A DNA stretch of 64,000 nucleotides, taken from Alphaproteobacteria bacterium. GTDB lineage: Bacteria > Pseudomonadota > Alphaproteobacteria > Rs-D84. Below, piece by piece: positions 1,726 to 52,762 of this stretch; the first letter of the stretch is position 1, and each line of letters starts with the position of its first letter. Under the pieces are notes generated by a model. The model was not told the DNA's origin and searched no databases. It was given only the letters and a program-made list of their open reading frames with translations. Location: contig JAGBHZ010000002.1 in NCBI GenBank assembly GCA_017935245.1, forward strand, positions 27,735 to 91,734, read 5' to 3'. A program made the translations under genes and the position numbers.

Positions 1726-2901
1726 TTAAATCCCAAACATAACCCGAATGTTCTTAATTACGCGTCCGATAAATTGAATTTTACGAACACGCTCATTCGC
1801 GACCAGTGGTGCCCGCGCAATAACACGTCCGTTCTGTTCCGCGATTAATTCGCCAATTTCGTCGCCCACACCAATTGGTGCCGCCACCGGTTCATTAAAT
1901 CGGGCCAAGACACGCACATCTTTCAGTCCGTCTTTTTTATCAACTGTGATTGCAAATGGTTTGGCGACCGTTGCGGCAACAGAATCAACCTTGCCGTACC
2001 ATACGGGGATATTTGCAACGGTATCGCCGGGCTTGAAAAACACCTTGGTCATTGTGGTTGAAAAACCATGATTCAGTAATTTTTTCATCTCGTTCGCCAA
2101 TGCATCATGGCCTTTGCCGTTGAATCCGTTAATCACCCCCACCAGGCGTCGTCCACCAACCTTTGCACTGGCCACCATGCCATATCCGCCATCACTTGTA
2201 TGTCCCGTTTTCAGGCCATCCGCCCCCGGCATAATAAACAACAGTTTGTTATAATTCATCGTATGTGTCCGCCCCCATTCCCGACACCAATCGGTTTGGT
2301 GTTCTTCAAATTCAAACCGCTTGGTCGCGAACATCGGATACAGGTCTGGGTAATCACCAATCAAATGCACCGCCAATGTGGCCAGTTCCCGGCTGGTCAT
2401 CAAATTGTTCGGATTTGGCAGGCCACTGGCATTTCCGAACGTGGATTGTTCCATACCGATACTGCGCGCCTTTTGTTCCATCAATTGCGTGAATGCATCT
2501 TCGGATCCGGCCAGTTTTTCCGCCACAACCACGGACGCATCGCCCCCTGATAATACAATCAGGCCCAAAATCAAATCACGCACGGTAATCGTTTGACCCG
2601 CGCTAAGGCAAATCTTGCTTGCTGGGTACCATTTTGGGTCGTTATAGTCTGCATTTTCACTGACCGGGAAACGCGTATCCATTGTAATGTTGCCCGCCGC
2701 CAATTCGTCGAACAACACCGCCAACGTCATCAGTTTTATCATCGATGATGGTGGCATCAATGTATCGGCATTTTTTGCGACAATCTCTGCCCCGGAATCA
2801 TAGTCAATTAAAAATGCAGATTTAGCCTTGGTCTTGAATTCTGTGGCATTTGCCACACCACACGCCAACAATAAAAATAGTGTAAATAATTTCTTTTTCA
2901 T
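1726..2901 (-). CDS. dacA: D-alanyl-D-alanine carboxypeptidase (PBP5/6 family, peptidase S11)
   Basis: Signal peptide, PSSMIK (SxxK), SGGD (SxN variant), KTGHT; start taken at MKKKLF. Confidence 0.9.
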   Translation of the reverse strand: MKKKLFTLFLLLACGVANATEFKTKAKSAFLIDYDSGAEIVAKNADTLMPPSSMIKLMTLAVLFDELAAGNITMDTRFPVSENADYNDPKWYPASKICLSAGQTITVRDLILGLIVLSGGDASVVVAEKLAGSEDAFTQLMEQKARSIGMEQSTFGNASGLPNPNNLMTSRELATLAVHLIGDYPDLYPMFATKRFEFEEHQTDWCREWGRTHTMNYNKLLFIMPGADGLKTGHTSDGGYGMVASAKVGGRRLVGVINGFNGKGHDALANEMKKLLNHGFSTTMTKVFFKPGDTVANIPVWYGKVDSVAATVAKPFAITVDKKDGLKDVRVLARFNEPVAAPIGVGDEIGELIAEQNGRVIARAPLVANERVRKIQFIGRVIKNIRVMFGI

Positions 2902-6137: not shown

Positions 6138-6434
6138 ATGAAAGGATATATTTTTGCAATTTTATTGCTGGGGTTGACCGGATGTATGTCTGGGGCGCCC
6201 GAAAATGAATACGTTGATGCCCCGGTTGAATGCGCGGGCGATTGTTCGGGCGTTGCATTTTCAATGCCAAACGGCAACGATTTGAAACTGGAAACGGCGC
6301 ACCATGTTGTGCATGTCACGGCCCAGCCTGGCACACCATATGCATACTATGTATGGACAGGGGACAAGACGTACGACGATGATCCCGACATTGTTGTGGA
6401 AAATGGCGATGCGTATGTTTTAACAAATGAATAA
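6138..6434 (+). CDS. Hypothetical lipoprotein
   Basis: MKGYIFAILLLGLTGC lipobox. Confidence 0.7.
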   Translation: MKGYIFAILLLGLTGCMSGAPENEYVDAPVECAGDCSGVAFSMPNGNDLKLETAHHVVHVTAQPGTPYAYYVWTGDKTYDDDPDIVVENGDAYVLTNE

Positions 6435-6459
6435 AAAAACGCCCATTTGGGCGTTTTTT
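6434..6459. terminator. Bidirectional terminator between convergent genes
   Basis: aaaaaacgccca-tt-tgggcgtttttt. Confidence 0.75.
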
Positions 6460-8536
6460 ATTCGGCCAATGTTCCCACCGACATTGTAATGCGGCGGATA
6501 CCACTGCTGATTGATTTTTCCTTGTTAATTTTTGCCTTTAATATTTCACCGGTGTGATAAACGTGTGTCCCACCACACAGTTCGCATGAAACATCGCCGG
6601 CGGTTATAACCTTGACTGTGTTGCCGTATTTTTCACCGAATAATGCCATTGCGCCTTTTTTAACGGCGTCGTCCATTGACATTTCTTCGTGTTCAACCGG
6701 CATATCTGCGGCAATCCATTTATTAACCAATTCTTCGACCGCCATTTTTTCGTCCGCCGTCATCGCGCGTCCAAACGAGAAGTCAAATCGAACCGAATCC
6801 GGACTGACCTTAGACCCACGTTGTTCGACATCTTCGTTCAAGACGTGGCGTAACGCCGCCTGTAACAAGTGGGTTGCCGTATGTGCACGTGCGGTTTGTT
6901 GACGTGTTGCCGCGTTGATTACGGGCGAAACGACATCCCCAACCGATACATCTGATTTTAAAACACCCTTGTGTATAACAATGTTATCGACGCGTGCGGC
7001 CTCGGCAACGGTCATGACGACATTGTCGCCGCGCTTTAATTCACCACTGTCGCCAACCTGGCCCCCCTGGGTGCCATAGAACGTTGTTTTATCCAGTGCG
7101 ATTTCAACTTCGTCGCCCGCGTTTGCCGATGAAACAAATTCGCCACCGCGCAGAATAGACAACACACGTGATTCCATTTGGGTTGGGGCGTATTTTGCCG
7201 CATCATCGGTTGCCGCCAGATCCGTTTGTGATTCCCAGAATATACGTGTGCCCTTGGTATTGGCGCGTGAACGTTCTTTTTGTTCTGCCATTGATTTTTC
7301 AAATCCCGCAACATCAACATCTATATTTTTATCGCGTAAAATCATTTGGGTTAAATCCAGCGGGAAACCATACGTGTCAAACAGTTTAAATGCCACATCG
7401 CCCGGCAATATATTGTTGTTCAGTTTTGGCAATTCACTTTCCAGCAATTTCATACCGTTTTGCAGCATGTCTGCAAAAGAATTCTCTTCGTTCTGAATAA
7501 TTTCAACAACACGTTGCTGATTCGCGGCCAGTTCTGGATACGCCGCCCCCATTTCTGTAATCAGCGCCGGATACAGTTTTGACAACAATGCCCCCCGATG
7601 CCCCAGTATTTGTCCATGGCGCATTGCGCGACGCAAGATACGACGAATTACATATCCGCGGTCTGTGTTTGATGGGATAACACCGTCTGCGATTGCGAAT
7701 CCAACCGAACGCAGATGGTCTGTGATAACCTTGAAACTGGCGACGTTTTCCGCTGTTTCGGCAACGCCTGTTATGTCAGACACGGCCCGTTTCAGGTTCA
7801 CAAATAAATCCGTATCATAATTATCTGTTTTACCCTGTAAAATCGATGCGAAACGTTCCAGACCGGCCCCCGTATCAACGTTTTGCTTTGGCAGTGGTGT
7901 CAAATTACCATTTGCATCGCGGTCAAATTGCATGAACACGTCGTTCCAAATTTCGACCCAGCGTCCACCGTCTTCGTCGCTTGACCCCGGCATACCGCCC
8001 GGCAAATCCGCCCCCATGTCATAGTGCATTTCTGTGCACGGACCACATGGGCCGGTATCGCCCGCCGACCACCAGTTATCTTTATCCCCCAATCGAATTG
8101 CATCTTTGCCGGTGATTTTTTTCCATATTTCGGTTGCTTCGTCATCACTGTAATGCGTGGTTACAACGATGCGATTTGGATCCAGACCAAAAACGCGTGT
8201 CAACAATTCCCACGACATTTCGATGGCGCCGGCCTTGAAATAATCACCAAACGACCAATTCCCCAGCATTTCAAAGAACGTATGATGACGACCGTCAAAA
8301 CCCACATCTTCCAGGTCATTGTGTTTGCCACCCGCGCGAATGCATTTCTGAACGTCTGCAACACGTGGCGCAAATGCCGGTTCGGTGCCTTGTAAAATAT
8401 TTTTCCATGGGACCATGCCAGCAACTGTAAATAACAGTGTTGGGTCATTCGGTATCAGTGATGCCGACGGCACAATTTTATGTCCACGCGATTCAAAATA
8501 TTGTAAGAAAGACTTTCTTATATCATCATATGTCAT
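6458..8536 (-). CDS. alaS: Alanyl-tRNA synthetase, short form (about 692 aa, no C-Ala domain)
   Basis: DPTLLFTVAGM, HHTFFEMLGNWSFGDYFK, DTGAGLER, editing motifs HTATHLL and CGGTH; ends right after GIRRI; start at MTYDDIR with RBS aaagga. Confidence 0.95.
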   Translation of the reverse strand: MTYDDIRKSFLQYFESRGHKIVPSASLIPNDPTLLFTVAGMVPWKNILQGTEPAFAPRVADVQKCIRAGGKHNDLEDVGFDGRHHTFFEMLGNWSFGDYFKAGAIEMSWELLTRVFGLDPNRIVVTTHYSDDEATEIWKKITGKDAIRLGDKDNWWSAGDTGPCGPCTEMHYDMGADLPGGMPGSSDEDGGRWVEIWNDVFMQFDRDANGNLTPLPKQNVDTGAGLERFASILQGKTDNYDTDLFVNLKRAVSDITGVAETAENVASFKVITDHLRSVGFAIADGVIPSNTDRGYVIRRILRRAMRHGQILGHRGALLSKLYPALITEMGAAYPELAANQQRVVEIIQNEENSFADMLQNGMKLLESELPKLNNNILPGDVAFKLFDTYGFPLDLTQMILRDKNIDVDVAGFEKSMAEQKERSRANTKGTRIFWESQTDLAATDDAAKYAPTQMESRVLSILRGGEFVSSANAGDEVEIALDKTTFYGTQGGQVGDSGELKRGDNVVMTVAEAARVDNIVIHKGVLKSDVSVGDVVSPVINAATRQQTARAHTATHLLQAALRHVLNEDVEQRGSKVSPDSVRFDFSFGRAMTADEKMAVEELVNKWIAADMPVEHEEMSMDDAVKKGAMALFGEKYGNTVKVITAGDVSCELCGGTHVYHTGEILKAKINKEKSISSGIRRITMSVGTLAE

Positions 8537-8593
8537 GTTGTTTTTCCTTTGATTGTCAGGGGGCATTGTATAAATATTGTTACACGGTTTCAA

Positions 8594-10474: not shown

Positions 10475-10548
10475 TAGTGGTGAGCCGTAAGTGGTTAGTG
10501 ATTGTGTGCGGCATCCGCCGCACACAATCACTAACCACTAATCACTAA
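10474..10548. repeat. REP/MITE-like 23-bp perfect inverted repeat built from heptamer units
   Basis: agtggttagtgattgtgtgcggc (10490-10512), loop atcc, gccgcacacaatcactaaccact (10517-10539), plus extra ttagtgg/aatcact units. Confidence 0.75.
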
Positions 10549-10573: not shown

Positions 10574-10602
10574 TTGCGTTGGATGAAATAATAGATTATA
10601 AT
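10574..10602 (+). promoter_or_regulatory. Sigma70-like promoter of RNA module 1
   Basis: TTGCGT-17-TATAAT. Confidence 0.65.
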
Positions 10603-10609
10603 ATGTGTG

Positions 10610-10695
10610 TTATGACCGATGGTCATAATGGGGTGTCAGAACCCGTGCAATACGCGTTTGGAAACGAAATCCGGCGCGCCAGTGGCGTGTTTTTT
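10610..10695 (+). ncRNA. Putative C4/CI-like antisense RNA, copy 1
   Basis: Hairpins ttatgacc/ggtcataa and atggg-gtgtcagaa-cccgt, terminator-like cgcgcc/ggcgtg + T6; loop tcagaac is complementary to gttctga at 10792-10798. Confidence 0.5.
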
Positions 10696-10700
10696 CGTAT

Positions 10701-10859
10701 ATGAATCCAGACGAAAATCAAAAAACTCCTGATGTATTACGTGTCAGGAGGGTTGCGAATATATTGAATAAGCACACAATTCGTATTGATTGTTCTGAAC
10801 CTCCTGACCACTCGAATTTATTCGGTGGTTTTTTCAAACATGAAAAAAGGGAGATTTAG
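10701..10859 (+). CDS. Putative 52-aa leader ORF spanning the antisense target and switch
   Basis: MNPDENQKTPDVLRVRRVAN...KREI; stop 3 nt before the next ATG; below the ORF-track cutoff, may not be translated. Confidence 0.25.
   Translation: MNPDENQKTPDVLRVRRVANILNKHTIRIDCSEPPDHSNLFGGFFKHEKREI
10726..10834 (+). promoter_or_regulatory. Putative antiterminator/terminator switch, copy 1
   Basis: tcaggagg (10744-10751) pairs with cctcctga (10800-10807) or with ctcctga (10726-10732); the competing hairpin accac-cgaa/ttcg-gtggt is followed by a T tract. Confidence 0.45.
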
Positions 10860-10862
10860 GTT

Positions 10863-11312
10863 ATGAAAAAAATTTTATTTATGGGCATAATCGCAACAAT
10901 ATTATCCGCGCCCACAATCGCCGCACAGATATGCGCACCGCTTATTTCCACTATGAAGCCCTCGTGGGCAAGCGAACTAATAACGACGAGTGATTGGATA
11001 GTATATGACGTCCCGCTAGACGGATTAAAATTTACAAAATCAACAATTAGTGGCGTGGCCATTTGTTCATCGGCAACCCAAACCGTATCGGGAATGTTGC
11101 CCACAATTAGCAGCGAAGCCGAATACCAATCAATTGTTCATTGCTGGGTACGCACAATCAAGCCCGTTGTATCAGAATGGATGCGACACAAAGAATACGA
11201 CAGTGCAATTGAATGTCTGAAAAACTGTTCGAAAGATGCAGTCGCACAAATGAATGGATACACAAACCAAACATTGGTAAACAACATTATCAAAAATGGC
11301 AATCAAATTTAA
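10863..11312 (+). CDS. Secreted Cys-rich hypothetical protein
   Basis: Signal peptide MKKILFMGIIATILSAPTIAA; motifs DW, ISGVAIC, CWVRTIKPVVSEW, CLKNCS shared with the next gene. Confidence 0.75.
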   Translation: MKKILFMGIIATILSAPTIAAQICAPLISTMKPSWASELITTSDWIVYDVPLDGLKFTKSTISGVAICSSATQTVSGMLPTISSEAEYQSIVHCWVRTIKPVVSEWMRHKEYDSAIECLKNCSKDAVAQMNGYTNQTLVNNIIKNGNQI

Positions 11313-11329
11313 AACAAATAGGGATGAAT

Positions 11330-12067
11330 ATGAAAAAAATAAGCATTTTATTATGTATTTTGGCAATGCCGGCATTTGGTGCGGCAAAGCGGTGTGTAAA
11401 ACTGGACCCGGAAACAACCACATGCACGCCAACAAACCCAACATATGGCAATGTTGACTGGACGGCAACGTGCACGACCAAAGACAATGAAACAATTCCA
11501 ATCCTGGGGGTTGCGGCATGCGGGCGGGACGCTGCATCGGATGTTACCGAAATAGCCGGTTGGAAGACGTCTGATAGTATGCATGTATATCATAGTGGTG
11601 AAGAGTCTACAACTGATATACACATTGCCGTTTGTAGGTGTCGGATAATATACCCCGTCGTATCTGCGTGGGTAGAAATATCATTTGGCCAAGACCCCAC
11701 ATATATTCCAGAACCATTGGGATATGGTCCAAACGTATGCCTGTACGGATGTTCGTACGCGTGCGCAAATCGTGGTGGTACGTTTTATGAGGCCCTGCTT
11801 ACATCGGCGGCAAAATCACAAAGCGACACCGAATGCCCCGCCGGGTATATTGGCATCGATGAACCAACCTTCAAAATAGAAGACGCCTGTACCGATGACC
11901 CCGCTACTTCTTATAACATATCTATTAAATACACCCCACTGGGGGACGCAAATTCATGTTTGGATGACAATCCAGGCATAGACTGTGTATTATATGGTGA
12001 AAAAAACACATCGTACCATGATGACAGTGGCACATATGAATTTAATTCAATGTGTGTGATGGAATAA
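11330..12067 (+). CDS. Secreted Cys-rich hypothetical protein (paralog of 10863-11312)
   Basis: Signal peptide MKKISILLCILAMPAFGA; DW, ILGVAAC, CRCRIIYPVVSAW, CLYGCSYAC; C-terminal DDSGTYEFNSMC. Confidence 0.75.
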   Translation: MKKISILLCILAMPAFGAAKRCVKLDPETTTCTPTNPTYGNVDWTATCTTKDNETIPILGVAACGRDAASDVTEIAGWKTSDSMHVYHSGEESTTDIHIAVCRCRIIYPVVSAWVEISFGQDPTYIPEPLGYGPNVCLYGCSYACANRGGTFYEALLTSAAKSQSDTECPAGYIGIDEPTFKIEDACTDDPATSYNISIKYTPLGDANSCLDDNPGIDCVLYGEKNTSYHDDSGTYEFNSMCVME

Positions 12068-12091
12068 AAATCCCCCGTTTGGGGGATTTTT
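12066..12091 (+). terminator. Terminator after the Cys-rich gene pair
   Basis: aaaaatccccc-gttt-gggggattttt. Confidence 0.75.
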
Positions 12092-12142
12092 TTGATTCGC
12101 CCCTTTGTTTAATAAAAAAACACCCTTTCGGGTGTTAAATTC

Positions 12143-12190
12143 TGGTGCGAGCAAAGGGGCTCGAACCCTCGACCTCAACCTTGGCAAGGT
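12143..12190 (-). repeat. att site: duplicated 3' 48 nt of tRNA-Gly
   Basis: tggtgcgagcaaaggggctcgaaccctcgacctcaaccttggcaaggt, identical to 18964-19011; displaced terminator aacaccc/gggtgtt at 12119-12136. Confidence 0.95.
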
Positions 12191-12318
12191 AAATGCAGGC
12201 CGTTTTCTATCTTTTTACTACTTTTGCTCATTTGCTATTTTTACCTTGTTTCCTGCGTATTTTACCTTTACTTTTCGTTTCTGTCAATGTATAATTATAT
12301 CAAAGTTTTACTATTATC

Positions 12319-12341
12319 TTGTTGATATAGTGTTGATAAAA
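12319..12341. repeat. Putative integrase arm-type site (left)
   Basis: ttgttgatatagtgttgataaaa matches 18873-18895 at 22 of 23 positions and contains tandem tgttgat. Confidence 0.6.
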
Positions 12342-12372
12342 TATCAAGATAATAATAATCAAGGGGGACAAT

Positions 12373-13629
12373 ATGCCAGTTGAAAAGTTAACTTTGCCAT
12401 TCCTCAAAAATGTTAAATTGCCTGTTGGCAAACAGGTATTCTATTTTGATGAAAGTATGCCGCGATTTGGTGTGAGTGTCTTTCCGTCAGGCCGCAAGAC
12501 ATTTTTCATAAAATATCAGAACGAATACGGCAAGCCAAAATGGTTAAAAATCGGTCAATTTCCTATTATGACACTTGAACAAGCAAGAGAGGCAGCACGG
12601 GCAGCGTTGGTAAAAGTTGATTTGAACAAAGACCCCGCCAACGAAAAGCAAGGCAAACGCCACGCCAAAACAGTATCAGAATTGTGTGATTTATACCTGG
12701 AAATTGGTGTTGCACATAAAAAGCCGACAACCATAGCAAGCGACAAAGGACGCATAGAAACGCTTATAAAACCACTTATCGGTGCAATTCCTATTGAGGC
12801 ACTGACTCGCACAGATGTAACAACAATGATGACGGACATTATCAAGGGCGAAAAAATTCAAAAACACGAACCAAGTGGCAAACCTCGCGGCATCAGACGC
12901 GTTACTGGTGGCTCGGGTGCAGCAGCCCGAACCATTCAAACCCTTGGGGCAATAATGACTTTTGCCAAGAACCAAGGTTTCATATCAGAAAACCCCGTCC
13001 AAGGTGTAAAAAAACCAAAAGACAAGGTCCGCGATATATTCCTTACTTGGGACGAGGTGCGTGCCCTTGGTCGCATTTTAGCATTGCCACAGATACAGCA
13101 AATATACCCCCACATATGCACAATTATTCCTTTGCTTTTGTTAACGGGGTGTCGCAGAAATGAAATTTTAGAGTTACGGTGGGAATACATAGATTTTGAA
13201 AACCAAGTATTTAGATTTCCAGACACCAAAACTGGCAAACAAAATCGTCCATTTGGTATTGCCGCAAAGAAACTATTACAAAATATCAAAAACCAGACTC
13301 CGCACGCTAACACAGGCTGGGTATTTCCGTCTGTGCGTGGCGATAGCCATATTACAAATCTGTTAAAAACATTCAAAACCATATGTGCCACCAGAGATGA
13401 ACACGGACAAAGAATACTAAACAGGGACGATTTAACCTTGCACGCATTAAGACACACTTTTGCGACATTGGGGTCTGACCTTGGTTATGTTGAAAATACG
13501 ATGTCTGCATTATTGGGGCACCATTTGAGGACAGTAACAAGCCGTTACACACACGCCATTGACAAGAGCCTTATACTTGCGGCCAACGATATATCTTTGG
13601 CATTAGAAAAAGCATTAAACAATAAATAA
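12373..13629 (+). CDS. int: Tyrosine recombinase/integrase with N-terminal arm-binding domain
   Basis: LLTGCRRNEI, TKTG, LHALRHTFAT, LLGH...VTSRYTH; N-terminal FGVSVFPSGRKTFFIKY. Confidence 0.95.
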   Translation: MPVEKLTLPFLKNVKLPVGKQVFYFDESMPRFGVSVFPSGRKTFFIKYQNEYGKPKWLKIGQFPIMTLEQAREAARAALVKVDLNKDPANEKQGKRHAKTVSELCDLYLEIGVAHKKPTTIASDKGRIETLIKPLIGAIPIEALTRTDVTTMMTDIIKGEKIQKHEPSGKPRGIRRVTGGSGAAARTIQTLGAIMTFAKNQGFISENPVQGVKKPKDKVRDIFLTWDEVRALGRILALPQIQQIYPHICTIIPLLLLTGCRRNEILELRWEYIDFENQVFRFPDTKTGKQNRPFGIAAKKLLQNIKNQTPHANTGWVFPSVRGDSHITNLLKTFKTICATRDEHGQRILNRDDLTLHALRHTFATLGSDLGYVENTMSALLGHHLRTVTSRYTHAIDKSLILAANDISLALEKALNNK

Positions 13630-13640
13630 AGGGGGATAAT

Positions 13641-14222
13641 ATGCCACAAAAAAACTTAAAACGGGTGACAATATCAAAAAAGAAAACAACCAAAAACAAT
13701 ATCAAATTCAAACCTGCAAAAATACAGATTGTTGACCATTTTAACAATATGACACCTAAACAAATAGACGAATTTTGGGACAAAGCATTCAAAGTTAATG
13801 AAAAAGAACAAGCATTATTTGACCGCTATAAATTACAAAAACCATCTAGAAAAATACCAAAAGAAGCCCGAATGCTTATTCATAAAATGGCAAAAGAATT
13901 GGGATATTGGAAAGACGAAAATGTAATAGATTTAGTAAGTGGACCTGGTCGCCCAGGCAAGTGGGTAAATATTTTTGGGTGGACTTTTTACAACAGAGTG
14001 CAAGAACAAAAACAACAAACCCCACAACAAACAACCAATGCTTGCATACGAATCGTGAAAAACAAAAAAGAATACCGAAATGATTATGGGGACATACCTG
14101 TAAAAACACTGCAAGCCAGATACAAAGAATTAAAGAAAAAATATGAGCAGTGCAAAGATATTATTGACACACTAAAAGAATACGAACCTGATTTACAAGA
14201 ACTTGCAAAACAAATTCAATAA
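13641..14222 (+). CDS. Hypothetical protein of the element
   Basis: RBS aagggg, Lys-rich 193-aa ORF directly after int. Confidence 0.65.
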   Translation: MPQKNLKRVTISKKKTTKNNIKFKPAKIQIVDHFNNMTPKQIDEFWDKAFKVNEKEQALFDRYKLQKPSRKIPKEARMLIHKMAKELGYWKDENVIDLVSGPGRPGKWVNIFGWTFYNRVQEQKQQTPQQTTNACIRIVKNKKEYRNDYGDIPVKTLQARYKELKKKYEQCKDIIDTLKEYEPDLQELAKQIQ

Positions 14223-14380
14223 AACACCTCTTATATGGGACGAAAACCGTATAGATAATATCCGTGCCTCTTTCTTGAAGGACGGATATTTTTTTGCTTT
14301 ATCCGTCCCAAGAACGAATGAAATGATATGGGTAAAGATTGGCAAGAAAGCGAATCAAAACTATAACAAGAGGTAATGAA

Positions 14381-14602
14381 ATGACAAAATTTTTCACAAA
14401 GAAACAGGCGTCAAATTATATGACGGCCGAATTAGGGTTACCAGTGGCAGAAAAGACACTGTCAAAACTGATAACCATTGGCGGTGGTCCAGAATTTCAC
14501 AAATTCAATAAAAGGGTCGTTTATACCCAAACCGCACTTGATGAATGGGCAAAATCTCGTTTATCAAAACCACACAAAAATTCCAGCGAACAGGAGGCAT
14601 AA
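14381..14602 (+). CDS. AlpA/excisionase-like winged-HTH protein
   Basis: FTKKQASNYM...TLSKLITIGGGPEFHKFNKRVVYTQTALDEW. Confidence 0.75.
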   Translation: MTKFFTKKQASNYMTAELGLPVAEKTLSKLITIGGGPEFHKFNKRVVYTQTALDEWAKSRLSKPHKNSSEQEA

Positions 14603-15781
14603 ATGGCAACAAACGACACAGAAAAATTACCGTTTAAGGAAATTATTCCTTGGAACGAACCTGTTGACGGCACAGAATTGTTAAATAGTATTGAGGCAAT
14701 ATTCACTCGGTATTTATCATTGCCAGACGGTGCAGCCACCACCCAAGCCGTGTGGGTATTGCATACCTATTGCATTGACTTGTTTGAATTTACTCCACGC
14801 CTCTGTCTTGTATCGCCAGAAAAAAGGTGTGGAAAGACAACAAATTTAAGGTTGATTGAAAATCTATCTTACAGACCTGTCAATGTGGCTAGCACCTCAA
14901 CCGCAAGTTTATTTCGTGGCATTGACAAGTGGCACCCCACTATGTGCATTGACGAGGCAGACACATTCATTAACGGTTACGATGAGTTACGAGGCATTAT
15001 TAACGCAGGTTACGAACAAGACGGAAAAGTTAGCAGAACAGAATGTGTCGGCAAAAAATATGATGTTAAGTTGTTTCGTTGCTTTTCCCCTGTTGCGATT
15101 GCTGCCATTGGCTCAATACCAGGAACAATCGCGGACCGTGGTATTACAATTTGTATGCAACGCAAAAAAAGCGATGAACACAAAGACAAATTGCGAATTT
15201 CAAAAATCAAACCCAATTTATATGAAATTCAGCGTAAATGCTTACGCTTTGCAAAAGACAATAAAGGGGCAATAATAAATGCCGACCCAGATATTCCAAA
15301 TGTATTTAACGACAGGGCCGCAGATATTTGGGAAACATTATTCAAAATTGTTTCTGTTGTGTCCCCAGAATGGACGGAACGGCTGCGAATTGCCTCGTTG
15401 CTATTGTATAAATCAAAGATTGCGTCTGACCCACAATCTATAAGGGTTACACTATTGTCAGATATAAGGGACATTTTCAAAGAAAAAAATAACCCTAAAT
15501 ATATTGCCACCGAAAATTTGTTAAACGAACTCAAAGGCATAAAAATATCGCCTTGGGAACATTACAACAACAGAGGGTTAAACGACCATTCTTTGGCAGG
15601 GTTATTATCGTCATTCAATATAATATCGCACCAAATGAGGGCCCCAGACGGTAGAAAATACCGCTATGTGCTGAAAGATTTTCAAGACGCTTTTGAACGG
15701 TATTTGGCACCTCTACAAGATAACGAAAAAGATTGTGCCAGCGTGCCAGATGATACGGACATATTAGACATTCCAGATTAA
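14603..15781 (+). CDS. DUF3631-like replication/primase-associated NTPase of satellites
   Basis: PWNEPVDGTELL, WVLHTY, SPEKRCGKTT (Walker A), IDEADT, IINAGY, DRAADIWETL. Confidence 0.7.
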   Translation: MATNDTEKLPFKEIIPWNEPVDGTELLNSIEAIFTRYLSLPDGAATTQAVWVLHTYCIDLFEFTPRLCLVSPEKRCGKTTNLRLIENLSYRPVNVASTSTASLFRGIDKWHPTMCIDEADTFINGYDELRGIINAGYEQDGKVSRTECVGKKYDVKLFRCFSPVAIAAIGSIPGTIADRGITICMQRKKSDEHKDKLRISKIKPNLYEIQRKCLRFAKDNKGAIINADPDIPNVFNDRAADIWETLFKIVSVVSPEWTERLRIASLLLYKSKIASDPQSIRVTLLSDIRDIFKEKNNPKYIATENLLNELKGIKISPWEHYNNRGLNDHSLAGLLSSFNIISHQMRAPDGRKYRYVLKDFQDAFERYLAPLQDNEKDCASVPDDTDILDIPD

Positions 15782-15810
15782 GCAACTGTAACCAGTGGCA
15801 CAATGGCACA
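15734..15810. repeat. Convergent hexamer iteron pairs, candidate replication origin
   Basis: gtgcca at 15735 and 15743; its reverse complement tggcac at 15796 and 15804; 8-bp spacing in both pairs. Confidence 0.5.
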
Positions 15811-15831
15811 ATAAAAACAGAGGACACAAAA

Positions 15832-16215
15832 ATGGCAAACGAACAAAACTTAAAAGTATTAAGCCCGAACGAAGCACGAGAACTCGGTCGCATTGGAGGA
15901 CAGATGTCAGGAAAAGCACGCAGAGAACGCAAAAAATTGCGTGATATGGTTATGTCTATGGCAAACGGTCCTTTGCCATTTGACAATGATTATAGTCGCA
16001 ACCGATTCATAGAAAAATATCACATAGACAACCCGACAATTATAGACGGAATACTTGCACAGTTGGTTTCATCTGCATTGTATGGTGATATGGCAGCAAT
16101 TAAACTGTTTTTATCTTTAACGGCAGATACACCACAAATACCATTCCCAGCAGGACCATTAACAAAACAAAAATTTAAGGTTTCGTATGAAGCACAAAAA
16201 CAAAACTTTGAATAA
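15832..16215 (+). CDS. Terminase small subunit-like protein
   Basis: MANEQNL...EARELGRIGGQMSGKARRERKKLRD and ALYGDMAAIKL resemble phage TerS-like proteins. Confidence 0.55.
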   Translation: MANEQNLKVLSPNEARELGRIGGQMSGKARRERKKLRDMVMSMANGPLPFDNDYSRNRFIEKYHIDNPTIIDGILAQLVSSALYGDMAAIKLFLSLTADTPQIPFPAGPLTKQKFKVSYEAQKQNFE

Positions 16216-16232
16216 AACCAAAAGGAAACAAA

Positions 16233-16550
16233 ATGAATCAAACACTTTTTTACACACATTTCCCATATTGCATACAGCATTTAGGTGGGGACAGATACAT
16301 AATCTTGAATCGGAATTATAAACCACTTGGGCAAACAAATTTTGAATATGTGGACTATAATAAAGACCCGTCTGTTGTGCGTATGAAAATCACGACGAAA
16401 CAAGCCGAAAAACTATCTTACAAAGGCAAAGTTGAGTCAGACACTATTTGGTTGTATGAAAACACATACAACACATTTAGAAACCCGCAAGAATTTAACA
16501 ATTATGTAACCAGATTAAAATTATTGGCCACATTAACACCAAAAATCTAA
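16233..16550 (+). CDS. Hypothetical protein of the element
   Basis: RBS aagga; FPYCIQ...YIILNRNYKPLG motif recalled from mobile-element hypotheticals, no function assignable. Confidence 0.65.
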   Translation: MNQTLFYTHFPYCIQHLGGDRYIILNRNYKPLGQTNFEYVDYNKDPSVVRMKITTKQAEKLSYKGKVESDTIWLYENTYNTFRNPQEFNNYVTRLKLLATLTPKI

Positions 16551-16593
16551 TGTATGCTCTTTACTTTTTCTAAATAAGCATATAAAATAAGAA

Positions 16594-16815
16594 CTGAATC
16601 CGAGAGATTGGGTTCAGGGCTATTGCAGGCCTTATGTGTTCGGTGCGAAAGCATCGTTAAAAATGATGTTTCGGTGTTTTCCGCACCGTAATATCCCTGG
16701 CTTATGGTCGGGGAGTCGTTGGTTATAAAACAGGGGTAACCCGAAAGCCGCGGAATCATTTAACACATATGATTGCAATCTCCCTGACCGCTCTTTCTTG
16801 GGCGGTTAATTTTTT
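16594..16815 (+). ncRNA. Putative structured ncRNA inside the satellite
   Basis: TTTACT-17-TAAAAT promoter (16560-16588), nested helices 16622-16779, terminator gaccgctc/gggcggtt + T tract. Confidence 0.45.
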
Positions 16816-16833
16816 ATCAAAAAAGGCAAAAAA

Positions 16834-17331
16834 ATGAAAACAACGCGTCATTTAATTTTCTTGATTTTTGGGCTATTTTGTATTCCTGCACAAGCAAATT
16901 ATAATACCACTTGCCAAGGTATAGGCAATTCCGTTTATTGCAACACTTATGATTATGGTGCACCGTCAAACTATGGGGCTAATTGGGGAAATTCATTTTT
17001 ATCTGGGCTTAATGCAGGTATGCAAGCAAGAAAAAACGCCATAGAAACTCAAAACGCATTATTACAACAACAAATATTATTACAACAAGCGCAGCAAATG
17101 GCACGACAACAGCAACCCAAAATTTCATCGTGTAAAATATACAAGATTGTCGGGAAAGAATTTCCTGTTGGTCGTGTTGAACTTGTATTAACAAGAGTTG
17201 CAAGCGACAAATATCAGATTGTTGGCACAGACGCGTATGTTTTAACAAAAGATTGTTTCAGATATATGGAAAAACAACCTGTGATAGCGGATATAAACTA
17301 TTCGCCAAGCGACAGAATTTATTTTGAATAA
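16834..17331 (+). CDS. Secreted cargo protein
   Basis: Signal peptide ending PAQA; CQGIGNSVYCN motif; Gln-rich linker. Confidence 0.7.
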   Translation: MKTTRHLIFLIFGLFCIPAQANYNTTCQGIGNSVYCNTYDYGAPSNYGANWGNSFLSGLNAGMQARKNAIETQNALLQQQILLQQAQQMARQQQPKISSCKIYKIVGKEFPVGRVELVLTRVASDKYQIVGTDAYVLTKDCFRYMEKQPVIADINYSPSDRIYFE

Positions 17332-17348
17332 ACAAAGGGCTTTCTAAT

Positions 17349-17636
17349 ATGACGCGTATATTTTTATGTTTTATTTGTTGTTGTGTTCTGTCTGGGTGCA
17401 ACGAGGCTATGTTGCAGGGTTTAGCGGCAGGGTTAAGCCAATACGGACAAAACACCCAGGCAACAAACTATACATACACCCAGCCCACCACATACCGAGC
17501 ACCAACAACATATAACCGCATTGGGAACACGGTATATTCATCAAATGGGACAATGTATAACCAAATTGGCAATACCGTATATGGCACAGACGGCACTCAA
17601 TGCAGTAAAATTGGAAACACTGTTTATTGTAATTAA
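17349..17636 (+). CDS. Cargo lipoprotein with IGNTVY repeats
   Basis: Lipobox VLSGC; three IGNTVY repeats. Confidence 0.7.
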   Translation: MTRIFLCFICCCVLSGCNEAMLQGLAAGLSQYGQNTQATNYTYTQPTTYRAPTTYNRIGNTVYSSNGTMYNQIGNTVYGTDGTQCSKIGNTVYCN

Positions 17637-17657
17637 CAACTATAAAAAGGAAAAAAA

Positions 17658-18287
17658 ATGAAACAAATATCACTAGCAATAATTCTGTTTTCGTGTTTGG
17701 TCGCAACCAATGCATATGCGTTAAGTAAAAAGAGCCACGAAAAGGTAAATCTGTGTGTAAATATGTTAGGAGTGTCAACCTGTGAAATGGTTGAGGAAAA
17801 AGATGTTTATCAAACAGTTTATAATATGAAATACGACAGTTATTTTGGTTCTAGTTTAGAGTATTTTGATAAAATGGGCCTAGATAGTCATTATTTTGTA
17901 GATGATATGAAAAAATATACAGAATGTTATGCGGAAGCGTTCGCAAAAGAAGTAACGATGAAAGATGTCAATATGATATTTGACGAAACGACACCACCAG
18001 CAGCAAAAAATGCTTTGATAGACAATATTGCTTATAAATATGTAGATAAATGTAAGAAAAAATACGCACCATATATGAATAAAATGGAAGATGTATTACA
18101 GGTATATTTAGAAAAAGTGTGTGGCTCAACAACCCCAAGTAAATCAGTGGCAAAAAAATGCAAGAAACAATATAAAAATGAAGATGATATTATTAAGTGC
18201 CAACAAGAAAACGATGAATGGTATAAATGTCTAAATAAAATTATGACAGATACAGGCGATAAAATTATGAAAAATATGGCAGAGTAA
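17658..18287 (+). CDS. Secreted helical Cys-containing cargo protein
   Basis: Signal peptide MKQISLAIILFSCLVATNAYA; several spaced Cys. Confidence 0.7.
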   Translation: MKQISLAIILFSCLVATNAYALSKKSHEKVNLCVNMLGVSTCEMVEEKDVYQTVYNMKYDSYFGSSLEYFDKMGLDSHYFVDDMKKYTECYAEAFAKEVTMKDVNMIFDETTPPAAKNALIDNIAYKYVDKCKKKYAPYMNKMEDVLQVYLEKVCGSTTPSKSVAKKCKKQYKNEDDIIKCQQENDEWYKCLNKIMTDTGDKIMKNMAE

Positions 18288-18297
18288 GGGGAAAACA

Positions 18298-18522
18298 ATG
18301 AAAAAAATGATAATATTATGTCTTGGGTTGGGTTTGTTAGTTATTGGAACGGCAGACGCGGCATATACTCGCGGTCATATGCGTCGTAATGGCACATATG
18401 TATCAGGCTATCATCATACAACAGCAGACAAAACAAGAATAAATAACTATTCAACTCGCGGTAATTACAACCCTTATACAGGCAAAACAGGCACAAAACC
18501 ACTAACTAAATACGGGTATTAA
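18298..18522 (+). CDS. Small secreted cargo protein
   Basis: Signal peptide; NGTYVSGY...NNYSTRGNYNPYTGKTGT, a motif of a widespread small hypothetical family. Confidence 0.7.
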   Translation: MKKMIILCLGLGLLVIGTADAAYTRGHMRRNGTYVSGYHHTTADKTRINNYSTRGNYNPYTGKTGTKPLTKYGY

Positions 18523-18523
18523 A

Positions 18524-18661
18524 ATGGGAATCGGCACATTAACTCTTCTTTTTGTGATTCTTAAACTCTGTGGAGCCATATATTGGTCTTGGTTGTGGGT
18601 GTTGTCCCCACTATGGATTGGAGGTTTGCTTGCTTTGATTATAATGGGCAGCGAAAATTAA
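18524..18661 (+). CDS. 45-aa membrane protein (phage-type)
   Basis: MGIGTLTLLFVILKLCGAIYWSWLWVLSPLWIGG; not in the ORF track; the LKL.G...WSW.WV.SPLW pattern is common in phage small membrane proteins. Confidence 0.6.
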   Translation: MGIGTLTLLFVILKLCGAIYWSWLWVLSPLWIGGLLALIIMGSEN

Positions 18662-18872
18662 AACAATTTAATGGCAAGTTTTCGTTATATTCGTCATTTA
18701 CAATTTTTACACGAGTCAAAACACCATACCCACAATTATCAGACCCCGTGCCACCCCTCCCCAGGGGTCTTTTTTAACCAATATACGACACCAGAGGACA
18801 CACCATCGCAAATCAAAAACTCCGATTCTGTTCGCTTTGTTTTTCTATATTATTCCAACTTTTTCATACGAT

Positions 18873-18895
18873 TTGTTGATATACTGTTGATAAAA
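18873..18895. repeat. Putative integrase arm-type site (right)
   Basis: ttgttgatatactgttgataaaa matches 12319-12341 at 22 of 23 positions. Confidence 0.6.
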
Positions 18896-18898
18896 AAG

Positions 18899-18922
18899 AA
18901 AGACGGTAATTCTAACCGTCTT
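18899..18922 (-). terminator. Terminator supplied by the element downstream of tRNA-Gly
   Basis: aagacggt-aattcta-accgtctt with a T tract on the minus strand. Confidence 0.55.
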
Positions 18923-18963
18923 TATGTTTCTGTGTAAGTATTTGATTCTACTTACAAAAACTT

Positions 18964-19040
18964 TGGTGCGAGCAAAGGGGCTCGAACCCTCGACCTCAAC
19001 CTTGGCAAGGTTGCGCTCTAGCCAACTGAGCTACGCTCGC
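18964..19040 (-). tRNA. tRNA-Gly(GCC), integration target
   Basis: Reverse complement GCGAGCGTAGCTCAGTTGGCTAGAGCGCAACCTTGCCAAGGTTGAGGTCGAGGGTTCGAGCCCCTTTGCTCGCACCA. Confidence 0.97.
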
Positions 19041-51688: not shown

Positions 51689-51732
51689 TAATTTTATAGA
51701 AAACAAAAAAAATATCGATTATAATGCATGTA

Positions 51733-51796
51733 TGGTGATGGCTTGTCGCCACGGGTGTCGAAATCCCGTAGCTAACGTCTGACAAAGCCCAGACGT
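51733..51796 (+). ncRNA. Putative C4/CI-like antisense RNA, copy 2
   Basis: TATAAT at 51720-51725; hairpins ggtga/tcgcc, acggg-tgtcgaaat-cccgt, acgtctg/cagacgt; loop tcgaaat is complementary to atttcga at 51882-51888. Confidence 0.5.
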
Positions 51797-51821
51797 AAAA
51801 CATGTGCCCTACAACCAATAT

Positions 51822-51924
51822 CGGTTGGAGGGCGGGTGGAATAAGGATAAAATCCAAATACACCGCACTATTTAGCTATAGATTTCGAACCTCCAACCGC
51901 CTATATTTAACAGGGTGGTTTTTT
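51822..51924 (+). promoter_or_regulatory. Putative antiterminator/terminator switch, copy 2
   Basis: cggttggagg (51822-51831) pairs with cctccaaccg (51890-51899), competing with the aaccgcc/gggtggtt hairpin + T tract. Confidence 0.45.
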
Positions 51925-51988
51925 ATAATCATTATTATTGCCCCCCATAACATATCTTATCTCCAAAAACAAAACGGGGGGGCAACTT

Positions 51989-52762
51989 TTAAATTGAAAA
52001 AACTAAAACACGTTCTGTGCCACTTAAATCATTTTCAGCACGTTCAAATTTCCATCCGGCATTATGAAAAATTTCGCGAACGCGTTTTCCCATGCCAATA
52101 CCGATTTCCAGGTATATTTTACCGCGTGGTACAATTATATCGCGTGCATTTATTGCAATCGCCTGGTACGCGGCATATCCGTCGCTGGCGGCGTACAGTG
52201 CCATTTTTGGATCGAACGACGCCCCGGTATCCACACGTGTATCCCCACGGGCAATATATGGTGGATTTGAAACAATTATGTCAAATGGCGAATTAAATCG
52301 CATTTTTTTTGCAAAAGACATCCGCTTTATGATGACTTTATTTTCCAGATTATGCTTTTTTATGTTTCTGCGTGCCACGCGTATTGCGCCGCGTGAAATA
52401 TCGATTGCGGTGCCATGTGCGCCATGAATATTTTTAATCAGACTGACTATTACGCATCCGGTTCCAGTTCCGATGTCCAGAATTCTTGGATTTTTTATTC
52501 CCGCCCCACAATCTGAAATTACGGCCGAAACCAGTGTTTCTGTATCTGGGCGTGGATCCAATGTATGTTTGTTTGTATAAAACTGTAACCCAAAGAACCA
52601 TTTTTTTCCGATAATTTTTGCCACCGGCACGCCACGACGCAGCATGCGCGCATAAGACCAAACGCGAAATCGCGATAATATCGGATTGTTTTCAGTAATA
52701 ATTCGTGCCGCGCGTACACCGCCCGCCTGGGCCAAGATTGTGAATGCTTGATTTGTTGTCAT
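51989..52762 (-). CDS. prmC: Release factor glutamine methyltransferase
   Basis: PRPDTETLV, LDIGTGTGC, IVSNPPYI. Confidence 0.92.
   Translation of the reverse strand: MTTNQAFTILAQAGGVRAARIITENNPILSRFRVWSYARMLRRGVPVAKIIGKKWFFGLQFYTNKHTLDPRPDTETLVSAVISDCGAGIKNPRILDIGTGTGCVIVSLIKNIHGAHGTAIDISRGAIRVARRNIKKHNLENKVIIKRMSFAKKMRFNSPFDIIVSNPPYIARGDTRVDTGASFDPKMALYAASDGYAAYQAIAINARDIIVPRGKIYLEIGIGMGKRVREIFHNAGWKFERAENDLSGTERVLVFSI

Follow-up and report, generated by a model that had tools for sequence, protein, structure and literature searches.

A covarying leader-RNA family resembling phage C4 and IsrK elements, found mostly before secreted-protein genes in an uncultured alphaproteobacterial lineage

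Two intergenic elements in a 64,000-nucleotide (nt) stretch of an Alphaproteobacteria bacterium genome of the order Rs-D84 (GenBank assembly GCA_017935245.1, contig JAGBHZ010000002.1, positions 27,735 to 91,734; hereafter, the window) are members of a previously uncatalogued family of leader RNAs of approximately 195 to 230 nt, and every helix of this RNA module covaries. As judged from sequence and predicted structure, the 5' element of the module matches the phage RNAs c4-a1b1 and IsrK, and its 3' domain matches C4, as a distant relative of the small RNA (sRNA) sRNA-Xcc1. We think it fairly probable that the module is a C4/IsrK-like, self-pairing transcription attenuator that is off by default and alternates between two states as proposed below.

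The two copies share one architecture and differ in sequence, and all of the sequence features listed for them in the original prediction are present at 10574-10834 (copy 1) and 51697-51924 (copy 2). The window holds exactly two instances of the 3' signature, against none in 100 shuffles, and an nhmmer search of the 64 kb with a profile of the homologues detects these two copies and no others (E values of 1.6e-33 and 9e-23). The 5' element and 3' domain of each copy are joined by two pairs of complementary boxes, a and b, and this bipartite combination occurs inside its own copy only, once per sense, against an expectation of 0 in the window. For the family as a whole, scanning one genome per bacterial species for the exact pattern gave at least 119 stretches; the module is present by nhmmer in at least 65 loci among the matches listed, which yielded at least 62 non-identical full-length copies. 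Counts of 62 given below refer to the non-identical modules among these listed matches. Their hosts are Candidatus Enterousia or unnamed gut Alphaproteobacteria, “Rickettsiales” and proteobacterium metagenome-assembled genomes (MAGs), together with two contigs of ~2 kb that were binned elsewhere. The window DNA is 70 to 75% identical to these MAGs over housekeeping genes and therefore belongs to the same lineage. Several copies may share a contig, with four strict-pattern copies on one 262-kb contig and three within one 8-kb stretch.

Covariation supports each part of the structure. RNAalifold, run on the 62 copies, recovers hairpins P1 and P2, a GGAGG/CCUCC closing helix formed by strands B and C (B:C), hairpins P5 and P6, and a terminator. 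In the 5' element, 87% of cells are paired and the covariation score is 0.698, compared with 0.227 for shuffled alignments; all seven modelled pairs of P1 vary on both sides (58 sequences), and P2 also covaries. In the 3' domain, 91.8% of cells are paired and the score is 0.229, compared with 0.114 for shuffled alignments and 0.03 to 0.06 for slid controls. In divergent members, compensatory change reaches even the otherwise constant TC/GA of box pair a (see below) and the GGAGG/CCUCC of the closing helix. The 3' domain is a three-way junction closed by B:C over 9 to 12 bp, with box b in the loop of its second hairpin, box a in the junction and then a CCAC tail. Strand B is perfectly complementary to strand C over 8 to 12 nt and to a further upstream strand, A, over 6 to 10 nt in all 62 modules, and the three strands change together.

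The complementarity between a loop of the 5' element and a downstream 7-mer (box a), first seen in the two copies, is kept across the homologues: when 57 modules were anchored independently of complementarity, 55 had 7/7 Watson-Crick pairs, of 11 pair types, and the two failures comprised one anchor misregister and one real case. Non-cognate box a pairings matched in 25 of 4,026 cases. The second pair of boxes, b, is almost unique to each copy; cognate b boxes form Watson-Crick pairs over a longest run of 7 nt at the median (range, 4 to 10), compared with 4 nt for non-cognate pairs, and the position of b is fixed, with b' beginning 3 to 7 nt past a' and b ending 2 to 4 nt before a. Box sequences differ between paralogues of one genome. 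Box pair b and strand A are additions to the original prediction, as are an internal terminator in copy 1 and the observation that no same-strand gene follows copy 2.

We built two covariance models (CMs), R1 from 60 Enterousia-type 3' domains only and R2 from the 5' element of the modules. R1 relates the 3' domain to phage RNAs, recovering 41 phage sRNA-Xcc1 cores at full length (E values of 2e-10 to 2e-3). R2 gives weak matches only (E values of 0.08 to 0.7), four of five of which are placed exactly 5' of sRNA-Xcc1 cores and share their strand; the loop GGUGUCGAAACC, typical of the modules, appears in one of these matches. On phage P1, R2 has no significant match.

sRNA-Xcc1 itself proved informative. 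Its loci were collected from IMG/VR viral contigs (L120 to L171) by a pattern based on the Rfam consensus, giving 33 unique loci, and the six that were checked with Rfam scored 63 to 86 bits each. Upstream of the sRNA these loci carry, in order, a promoter, a hairpin with a loop (a1) complementing the sRNA junction, a complement (b1) of the second hairpin loop, and an intrinsic terminator; downstream, both boxes recur (a2 and b2), with b2 lying on the Shine-Dalgarno sequence of the gene that follows. An a1 box of at least 6 nt is present in 33/33 loci, b1 in 32/33, a2 in 28/33 and b2 in 29/33. Examples are L120 at 6185-6272 (-) and L139 at 2450-2534 (+). Since the loci carry a1/b1 upstream and a2/b2 downstream, sRNA-Xcc1 is a C4-type cis-encoded antisense RNA. 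Rfam places C4 and c4-a1b1 in clan CL00128 and sRNA-Xcc1 in none. It was experimentally mapped as an 88-nt sRNA (PMC2996969) and figures in the literature as a virulence-linked trans-acting sRNA with unknown targets; going by the boxes, its real targets are probably the adjacent genes. The same layout is annotated in the P1 record (a1, b1, c4, a2, b2, icd), where Rfam gives 68.8 bits for C4, 51 bits for c4-a1b1 and 35 bits for isrK. In P1, c4-a1b1 consists of a 7-bp hairpin and then a 4-bp hairpin with a1 in its 8-nt loop, followed 7 nt on by b1; the isrK model covers the same two hairpins plus a terminator; and in C4 a closing helix encloses two hairpins, the second carrying b' in its loop, with a' occupying the junction and a CCACC tail after it all. 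An IS110/IS1111 bridge or seek RNA was weighed as another identity, as sRNA-Xcc1 is integron associated, and was dropped: there is no transposase near either copy, and the phage loci show the C4 layout.

The likeness to C4 claimed in the original prediction therefore stands in respect of the P1/P7 cassette architecture and the relation to sRNA-Xcc1, but the roles are reversed, the 3' domain corresponding to the C4-like RNA and the 5' element to a1b1/IsrK. Targets placed downstream, as in the phages, did not materialize: no a2/b2 lies at the ribosome binding site of the next gene, and complementarity runs sought downstream of 60 modules were not above control.

What distinguishes the module is that its closing helix is fused to an intrinsic terminator. 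Strand C, which forms the 3' side of the helix, extends into the 5' side of a hairpin that precedes a run of 5 to 7 T, so that the proposed alternative between the GGAGG/CCUCC helix and the terminator is real. Over the 62 modules, the hairpin has a median of -9.4 kcal/mol with strand C free and -1.9 kcal/mol with all of strand C in B:C, and it reaches -6 kcal/mol or lower in 62/62 modules when strand C is free versus 3/62 when it is held. The corresponding values are -10.5 versus -5.3 kcal/mol for copy 1 and -9.2 versus -0.6 kcal/mol for copy 2. In 59 of 62 modules, the minimum free energy (MFE) fold of the full length has the 5' element in long-range pairing with boxes b and a, the GGGG of P2 extending onto the CCUC of strand C, strand A paired with B, and the terminator formed. 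In the alternative fold, P2 and P6 are local hairpins, the C4-like domain is closed by B:C, and most of the terminator stem is removed. When each fold was enforced, the long-range one was more stable than the B:C one by 12.6 ± 3.6 kcal/mol, and for this reason we read the module as an attenuator with termination as its default.

We hypothesize that a sigma-70-type promoter of its own drives each copy, producing a leader RNA that either descends from or is built like a P1-type phage immunity cassette; of 62 homologues, 41 have a TATAAT-like -10 element upstream of the a1-type box, at a constant distance of 33 to 34 nt. In the OFF state, the default, the 5' element would be paired over the long range with b, a and the CCUC of strand C, and A with B, such that the terminator would form and transcription would stop before the secreted-protein gene. 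In the ON state, the 5' element would remain in local hairpin P2 or be otherwise held, the C4-like domain would close via B:C, the terminator would lose ~8 kcal/mol, and RNA polymerase would read through. The trigger may be an RNA from the same locus that acts in trans and keeps the 5' element and 3' domain apart, thereby favoring read-through; candidates are a short 5' isoform (copy 1 and nine other modules) and a processed C4-like 3' domain. Termination as the regulated step, the identity of the ON state and the same-locus RNA trigger are what we infer, the trigger by analogy with IsrK (see below).

Several observations weigh against this attenuator. No Rfam family reaches its gathering score (sRNA-Xcc1, 53 bits; C4, 45; c4-a1b1, 46.7; isrK, 50) on either copy, the whole window yielding three tRNAs only, or on ~17 modules of eight loci. 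The membership test suggested in the original prediction, a scan with Rfam C4, c4-2 and c4-a1b1, gave no match to these or to isrK at E values up to 10 in either copy; at E values up to 1, the ~17 modules showed no C4, c4-a1b1 or isrK and one sub-threshold sRNA-Xcc1 match of 43 bits. sRNA-Xcc1 (RF02221) scored 35.3 bits (E value of 1e-4) on the 3' domain of copy 2, below its threshold, and had no match at E values up to 10 in copy 1. Further, R1 does not detect the c4 of phage P1 itself. Because of these negatives, architecture and the intermediate position of sRNA-Xcc1 are what connect the module to C4 proper. As to mechanism, long-range pairing and B:C may coexist as a pseudoknot, since C4 stays closed while its boxes pair with their target, and the two-state energetics are incomplete because ViennaRNA cannot score such a pseudoknot. 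For the same reason we dropped strict steric exclusion of B:C by the long-range duplex; exclusion now finds support only in the energetics and in the GGGG:CCUC extension predicted by folding. The effect could also run the other way, as it does in P4, whose RNA brings about termination. An internal intrinsic terminator, and with it the capacity to make a short 5' isoform, is confined to 10 of 62 modules (copy 1 included), so the trans-acting RNA of 65 to 85 nt expected in the original prediction cannot be the general mechanism. Lastly, copy 2 has no same-strand gene downstream and instead faces a convergent prmC-like gene (51989-52762, -); as a few homologues likewise lack a downstream gene, not every copy can serve purely as a leader.

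The scarcity of internal terminators also speaks for a purely cis-acting, riboswitch-like or protein-controlled attenuator in which no trans RNA takes part, since the 52 modules without one lack what a short trans isoform needs. In such an attenuator, the a/b pairing would be part of one compact fold, and a small molecule or RNA-binding protein at the invariant loops, GGGGUGUC in P2 and GAAUAUAUUGAAUAAG in P5, would choose between the terminator and the B:C antiterminator. These loops are indeed nearly invariant while the stems covary freely, the terminator/antiterminator overlap is of the classical kind, and the genes that follow fall into a single functional class (secreted proteins), which a shared signal would lead one to expect. 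However, the 3' domain is homologous to base-pairing phage RNAs, whose conserved loops are also conserved in phages; no Rfam riboswitch class matched either copy or the ~17 modules; and a common ligand pocket does not require boxes that differ between paralogues in one genome. We regard this cis-acting alternative as unlikely, if the most serious of those considered. Attenuation by a leader peptide was ruled out. The 52-amino-acid (aa) open reading frame (ORF) described over the target of copy 1 exists and ends just before the next gene, but it is not conserved: an ATG-initiated ORF of at least 40 aa crosses the 3' domain in 12 of 62 modules, and no Shine-Dalgarno sequence precedes ATG 10701. 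Because so few modules have a comparable ORF, that of copy 1 is probably fortuitous.

The genomic context ties the module to a class of genes. Approximately 85% of the 62 homologues lie directly 5' of genes for signal-peptide proteins, many of them Cys rich. Of 59 downstream ORFs, 41 passed a crude signal-peptide test; their Cys content has a median of 6.2%, and one Cys-rich family takes in 18 of the downstream proteins. A few modules precede XRE-type regulators or DNA methyltransferases, and a few, like copy 2, precede nothing. The claim that the module controls secreted-protein genes thus fits most of the family but not copy 2, which controls no downstream gene. In most modules the signal-peptide ORF begins 5 to 65 nt past the T-run, which leaves no room for a separate promoter, and these genes must therefore depend on read-through.

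That dependence bears on a further possibility, namely, that the module is a free-standing sRNA gene whose transcription ends at the terminator in every case to give a stable C4-like sRNA, which RNase P may trim, with distant targets and a gene context of secondary importance. Copy 2, with its own promoter and terminator beside a convergent gene, would suit such a gene, as would the (A)CCAC tail past the closing helix, which is nearly invariant, as in C4. There are precedents in the mapped sRNA-Xcc1 (PMC2996969) and in STnc1160, a stable RNA processed from the domain downstream of IsrK (PMC4825925). Nevertheless, no second site with the bipartite boxes of either copy was found across the 64-kb window, no downstream a2/b2 rises above control, and most modules sit too close to the start codon to be indifferent to read-through; we consider a free-standing sRNA gene quite unlikely.

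Still less probable, in our estimation, is that the copies are remnants or active parts of a mobile element or prophage immunity region, never domesticated, with the secreted proteins as cargo. In its favor, copy 1 is only 1.3 kb from an integrase island, some homologues precede the XRE-type regulators or DNA methyltransferases mentioned above, one locus holds an array of modules among XRE-like genes, and the related sRNA-Xcc1 loci sit in viral contigs. However, the attachment repeats of the island, at a tRNA-Gly gene (12137-12190 and 18958-19011), begin at 12137 and hence leave copy 1 outside, on the ordinary chromosome as the original prediction had it. Copy 1 comes after an HU-like gene and alaS, and copy 2 has a hydrolase gene on one side and prmC on the other. 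The terminator-fused module type was not found in 2.9 million IMG/VR contigs searched by pattern and with R1, the eight chance pattern matches not fitting R1. Finally, genomes of the order Rs-D84 are mostly smaller than 1 Mb with a coding density of ~90% (PMC12306168), yet several copies are kept.

The array just mentioned (L111, 2368-4160) comprises at least five module copies or fragments in 1.9 kb among two XRE-type helix-turn-helix ORFs, and some of its 3' domains have no 5' element. A similar picture comes from a Xylella genomic island, for which five sRNA-Xcc1 copies in tandem were reported (PMC12189769).

The box sequences invite a more speculative proposal, which we hold to be rather unlikely: the unique b box, together with one of about a dozen a boxes, would give each locus an RNA “address,” and the RNAs of a locus (its short 5' isoform or its processed C4-like RNA) would feed back only on nascent transcripts of that same locus, resulting in independent and possibly bistable on/off expression of each Cys-rich surface or secreted protein. 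If true, a domesticated phage heteroimmunity device would have become the basis of an RNA analogue of phase variation. The related idea of orthogonal switches, raised in the original prediction, fits the differing box pairs seen within genomes, and these naturally diverse pairs could serve as orthogonal RNA parts.

To our knowledge, C4, CI and IsrK, the textbook phage-immunity RNAs, are known only from phages, prophages and islands of Gammaproteobacteria and relatives. Here, a phage-type cassette would have been rebuilt as a terminator-controlling leader and multiplied before ordinary chromosomal secreted-protein genes, and that in Rs-D84, an uncultured alphaproteobacterial order with reduced genomes and hardly any noncoding DNA. 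Such a module would clearly exemplify the domestication of a phage regulatory RNA for the control of host genes. The analysis also adds a well-supported structured RNA family of more than 60 members outside Rfam 15 and, as a by-product, recasts sRNA-Xcc1 as a C4-type RNA with a1b1 and a2b2 boxes.

The features of the two copies are collected in Table 1. A simple promoter and terminator scan was helpful mainly in confirming the internal terminator of copy 1 and overlooks the copy 1 promoter and both final terminators, owing to a weak -35 element, bulged stems and long loops.

Table 1. Features of the two module copies and of the genes after copy 1 (positions in the window)
Feature	Position	Strand	Description
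Copy 1 promoter	10574..10602	+	-35 TTGCGT 10574-79 (3/6 consensus positions), 17-nt spacer, -10 TATAAT 10597-10602
Copy 1 hairpin P1	10610..10628	+	first of the hairpins in the 5' element (a1b1/IsrK-like); stem of 8 bp, loop of 3 nt
Copy 1 hairpin P2	10629..10646	+	9-nt loop; a1-type box TCAGAAC 10636-42 within and slightly beyond loop
Copy 1 b1-type box CAATACG	10648..10654	+	complement of CGTATTG 10782-88
Copy 1 hairpin P3	10655..10713	+	outer stem CGTTTGG/CCAGACG around internal intrinsic terminator 10673-10696, IsrK-like (terminator scan, fold)
Copy 1 strand A CTCCTGA	10726..10732	+	able to pair with strand B (fold)
Copy 1 C4/sRNA-Xcc1-like 3' domain	10743..10811	+	B:C closing helix, P5, P6, tail CAC; R1 72.4 bits
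Copy 1 strand B GTCAGGAGG	10743-51	+	GGAGG strand; pairs with strand C
Copy 1 box b CGTATTG	10782-88	+	within hairpin P6
Copy 1 box a GTTCTGA	10792-98	+	in junction; followed by A-CCTCCTGAC
Copy 1 strand C CCTCCTGAC	10800-08	+	A-CCTCC; 3' strand of closing helix
Copy 1 intrinsic terminator	10806..10834	+	GACCAC...GGTGGT + T6, ends GGTGGTTTTTT at 10834; 5' strand overlaps strand C
Copy 1 ORF, 52 aa	10701-10859	+	ends 3 nt before ATG at 10863
First gene after copy 1	10863..11312	+	149 aa, signal peptide, no Pfam family
Second gene after copy 1	11330..12067	+	245-aa Cys-rich secreted protein, AxxKCVxL...CWC family
Operon terminator after second gene	~12066-12096		
Copy 2 promoter	51697..51725	+	TAGAAA, 17-nt spacer, TATAAT 51720-25; 10/12 positions fit consensus
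Copy 2 5' element	51733..51775	+	P1 51733-51, P2 51751-69; R2 31.7 bits
Copy 2 a1-type box TCGAAAT	51758-64	+	in P2 loop
Copy 2 b1-type box TAGCTAA	51769-75	+	complement of TTAGCTA 51872-78
Copy 2 hairpin P3	51776..51796	+	ACGTCTG...CAGACGT; without internal terminator
Copy 2 strand A CCCTACAACC	51807..51816	+	complements strand B save one mismatch (fold)
Copy 2 C4/sRNA-Xcc1-like 3' domain	51823..51901	+	P5 with nested hairpin, P6, tail GCC; R1 47.7 bits
Copy 2 strand B GGTTGGAGG	51823-31	+	
Copy 2 box b TTAGCTA	51872-78	+	in P6
Copy 2 box a ATTTCGA	51882-88	+	
Copy 2 strand C CCTCCAACC	51890-98	+	
Copy 2 terminator	51895..51924	+	AACCGCC...GGTGGTT + T-run; overlaps strand C

A Pfam search of both proteins encoded after copy 1 found no family. 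Sequences in 10863-12067 belong to a secreted family of ~140 to 250 aa, also encoded downstream of modules in nine other loci (L011, L027, L028, L035, L046, L051, L073, L079 and L116), with the motifs AxxKCVxLxxxTxC at the N terminus and CWC(K/R)M...W...C...C at the C terminus and likewise without a Pfam match; a larger relative has Ephrin_rec_like Cys-rich repeats. Other genes downstream of modules open with a “DIAS(T/V)xYVD” motif after the signal peptide.

Upstream of copy 1, between the terminator of the HU-like gene and the promoter of the module, is a perfect inverted repeat (10480-10529) with arms of ~23 bp, AGTGGTTAGTGATTGTGTGCGGC / GCCGCACACAATCACTAACCACT, and a 4-nt loop. Rfam returns only weak, chance-level matches for it (SymR and Rev13); a similar “gtaagtggtaagtgattagtg” stretch stands 5' of the module in L019, and the repeat may be a dispersed one. 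The alaS ORF (6458-8593, -) encodes 711 aa, which would fit genome reduction; the alanyl-tRNA synthetase of Escherichia coli has ~875 aa. On the other side, the integrative island (12137-19011, 6.8 kb) lies between 54-nt direct repeats that are 96% identical and represent the 3' part of tRNA-Gly(GCC) (18964-19040, -). It encodes a P4-type integrase (12373-13629; Phage_integrase plus Arm-DNA-bind_3), a small AlpA-like ORF (14339-14602) and a DUF3631 protein (14603-15781). Between the terminator of copy 2 and the end of the prmC-like gene is a long GC-clamped hairpin (51938-51987, TTGCCCCCC ... GGGGGGCAA), probably the terminator of that gene, with a weak, chance-level abiF match in Rfam. The search pattern also caught a distinct conserved intergenic element of ~150 nt in eight Marinobacter genomes (L021, L040, L064, L074, L090, L105, L106 and L119), with the segments ...GGTTCGAGTATACTTCGCGCCCTGGCTTTTCAAGG...GAACCTCCTCCGGATGCC...GGTGGTGGTTTTTAACGTT; having no nhmmer hit, it is not related to the module and may represent a further terminator-bearing structured RNA.

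Among known systems, phage P4 (seqA, CI RNA/seqB and seqC) resembles the module by description, in that an RNA processed from the untranslated leader pairs within its own transcription unit and controls premature termination of transcription, not translation (see also the discussion in PMC4825925). In P4, however, complements lie on both sides of CI, which terminates in trans, whereas the modules have the upstream complement only.

IsrK of the Gifsy-1 prophage of Salmonella offers a parallel to the proposed switch. Its middle forms a long-range helix with ~30 nt located ~130 nt downstream, giving an inactive structure A that alternates with a local hairpin in structure B, and the short IsrK isoform flips its own long transcript in trans (PMC4825925). 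Like IsrK/STnc1160 (RF01394), copy 1 has a 5' two-hairpin RNA with its own terminator, at which read-through is possible, and a small ORF that spans the downstream domain and ends at the next gene, like orf45. In contrast, the modules have no isrK CM match, most of them are without the internal terminator, their small ORF is not conserved, and the output of IsrK is translation of orf45/anrP rather than termination.

With the immI region of P1/P7 (c4-a1b1, RF03163; C4, RF01695), the modules share the succession of a promoter, a 7-bp hairpin, a 4- to 5-bp hairpin with a1 in an 8- to 9-nt loop, b1 3 to 7 nt on, a terminator-containing hairpin and a three-way-junction RNA. Mature C4 has a 5' end made by RNase P, is ~77 nt long and ends in an ACC tail. 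The modules differ in having no CM match to C4 or c4-a1b1, no a2/b2 and no icd/ant, and the family is chromosomal and multicopy. Further, the output of the module would be intrinsic termination, whereas in P1 it is a translational block of icd (P1 annotation). In P1, that block leads to Rho-dependent polarity on ant.

The closest relative appears to be sRNA-Xcc1, which occurs in prophages and integron cassettes. The modules score 35 to 43 bits or nothing with its model, place no a2/b2 on the ribosome binding site of the next gene, fuse the closing helix to a terminator, and are followed by a secreted-protein gene rather than a phage or symE-type gene, in an AT-rich alphaproteobacterial host. 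Nevertheless, the two RNAs have in common a closing helix of ~9 bp with a GGAGG-type 5' strand, a first-hairpin AAUA...AAUAA loop, box b in the second loop, a junction box a of the form UUxGA before the 3' closing strand, and a CCAC/ACCC tail; in both, the loop of an upstream hairpin complements box a, a sequence complementary to box b comes next, and their detection by CMs is reciprocal. We therefore view the module as a self-pairing cassette of the C4/IsrK/sRNA-Xcc1 type that would have lost its external target, gained a terminator and spread before genes for secreted proteins.

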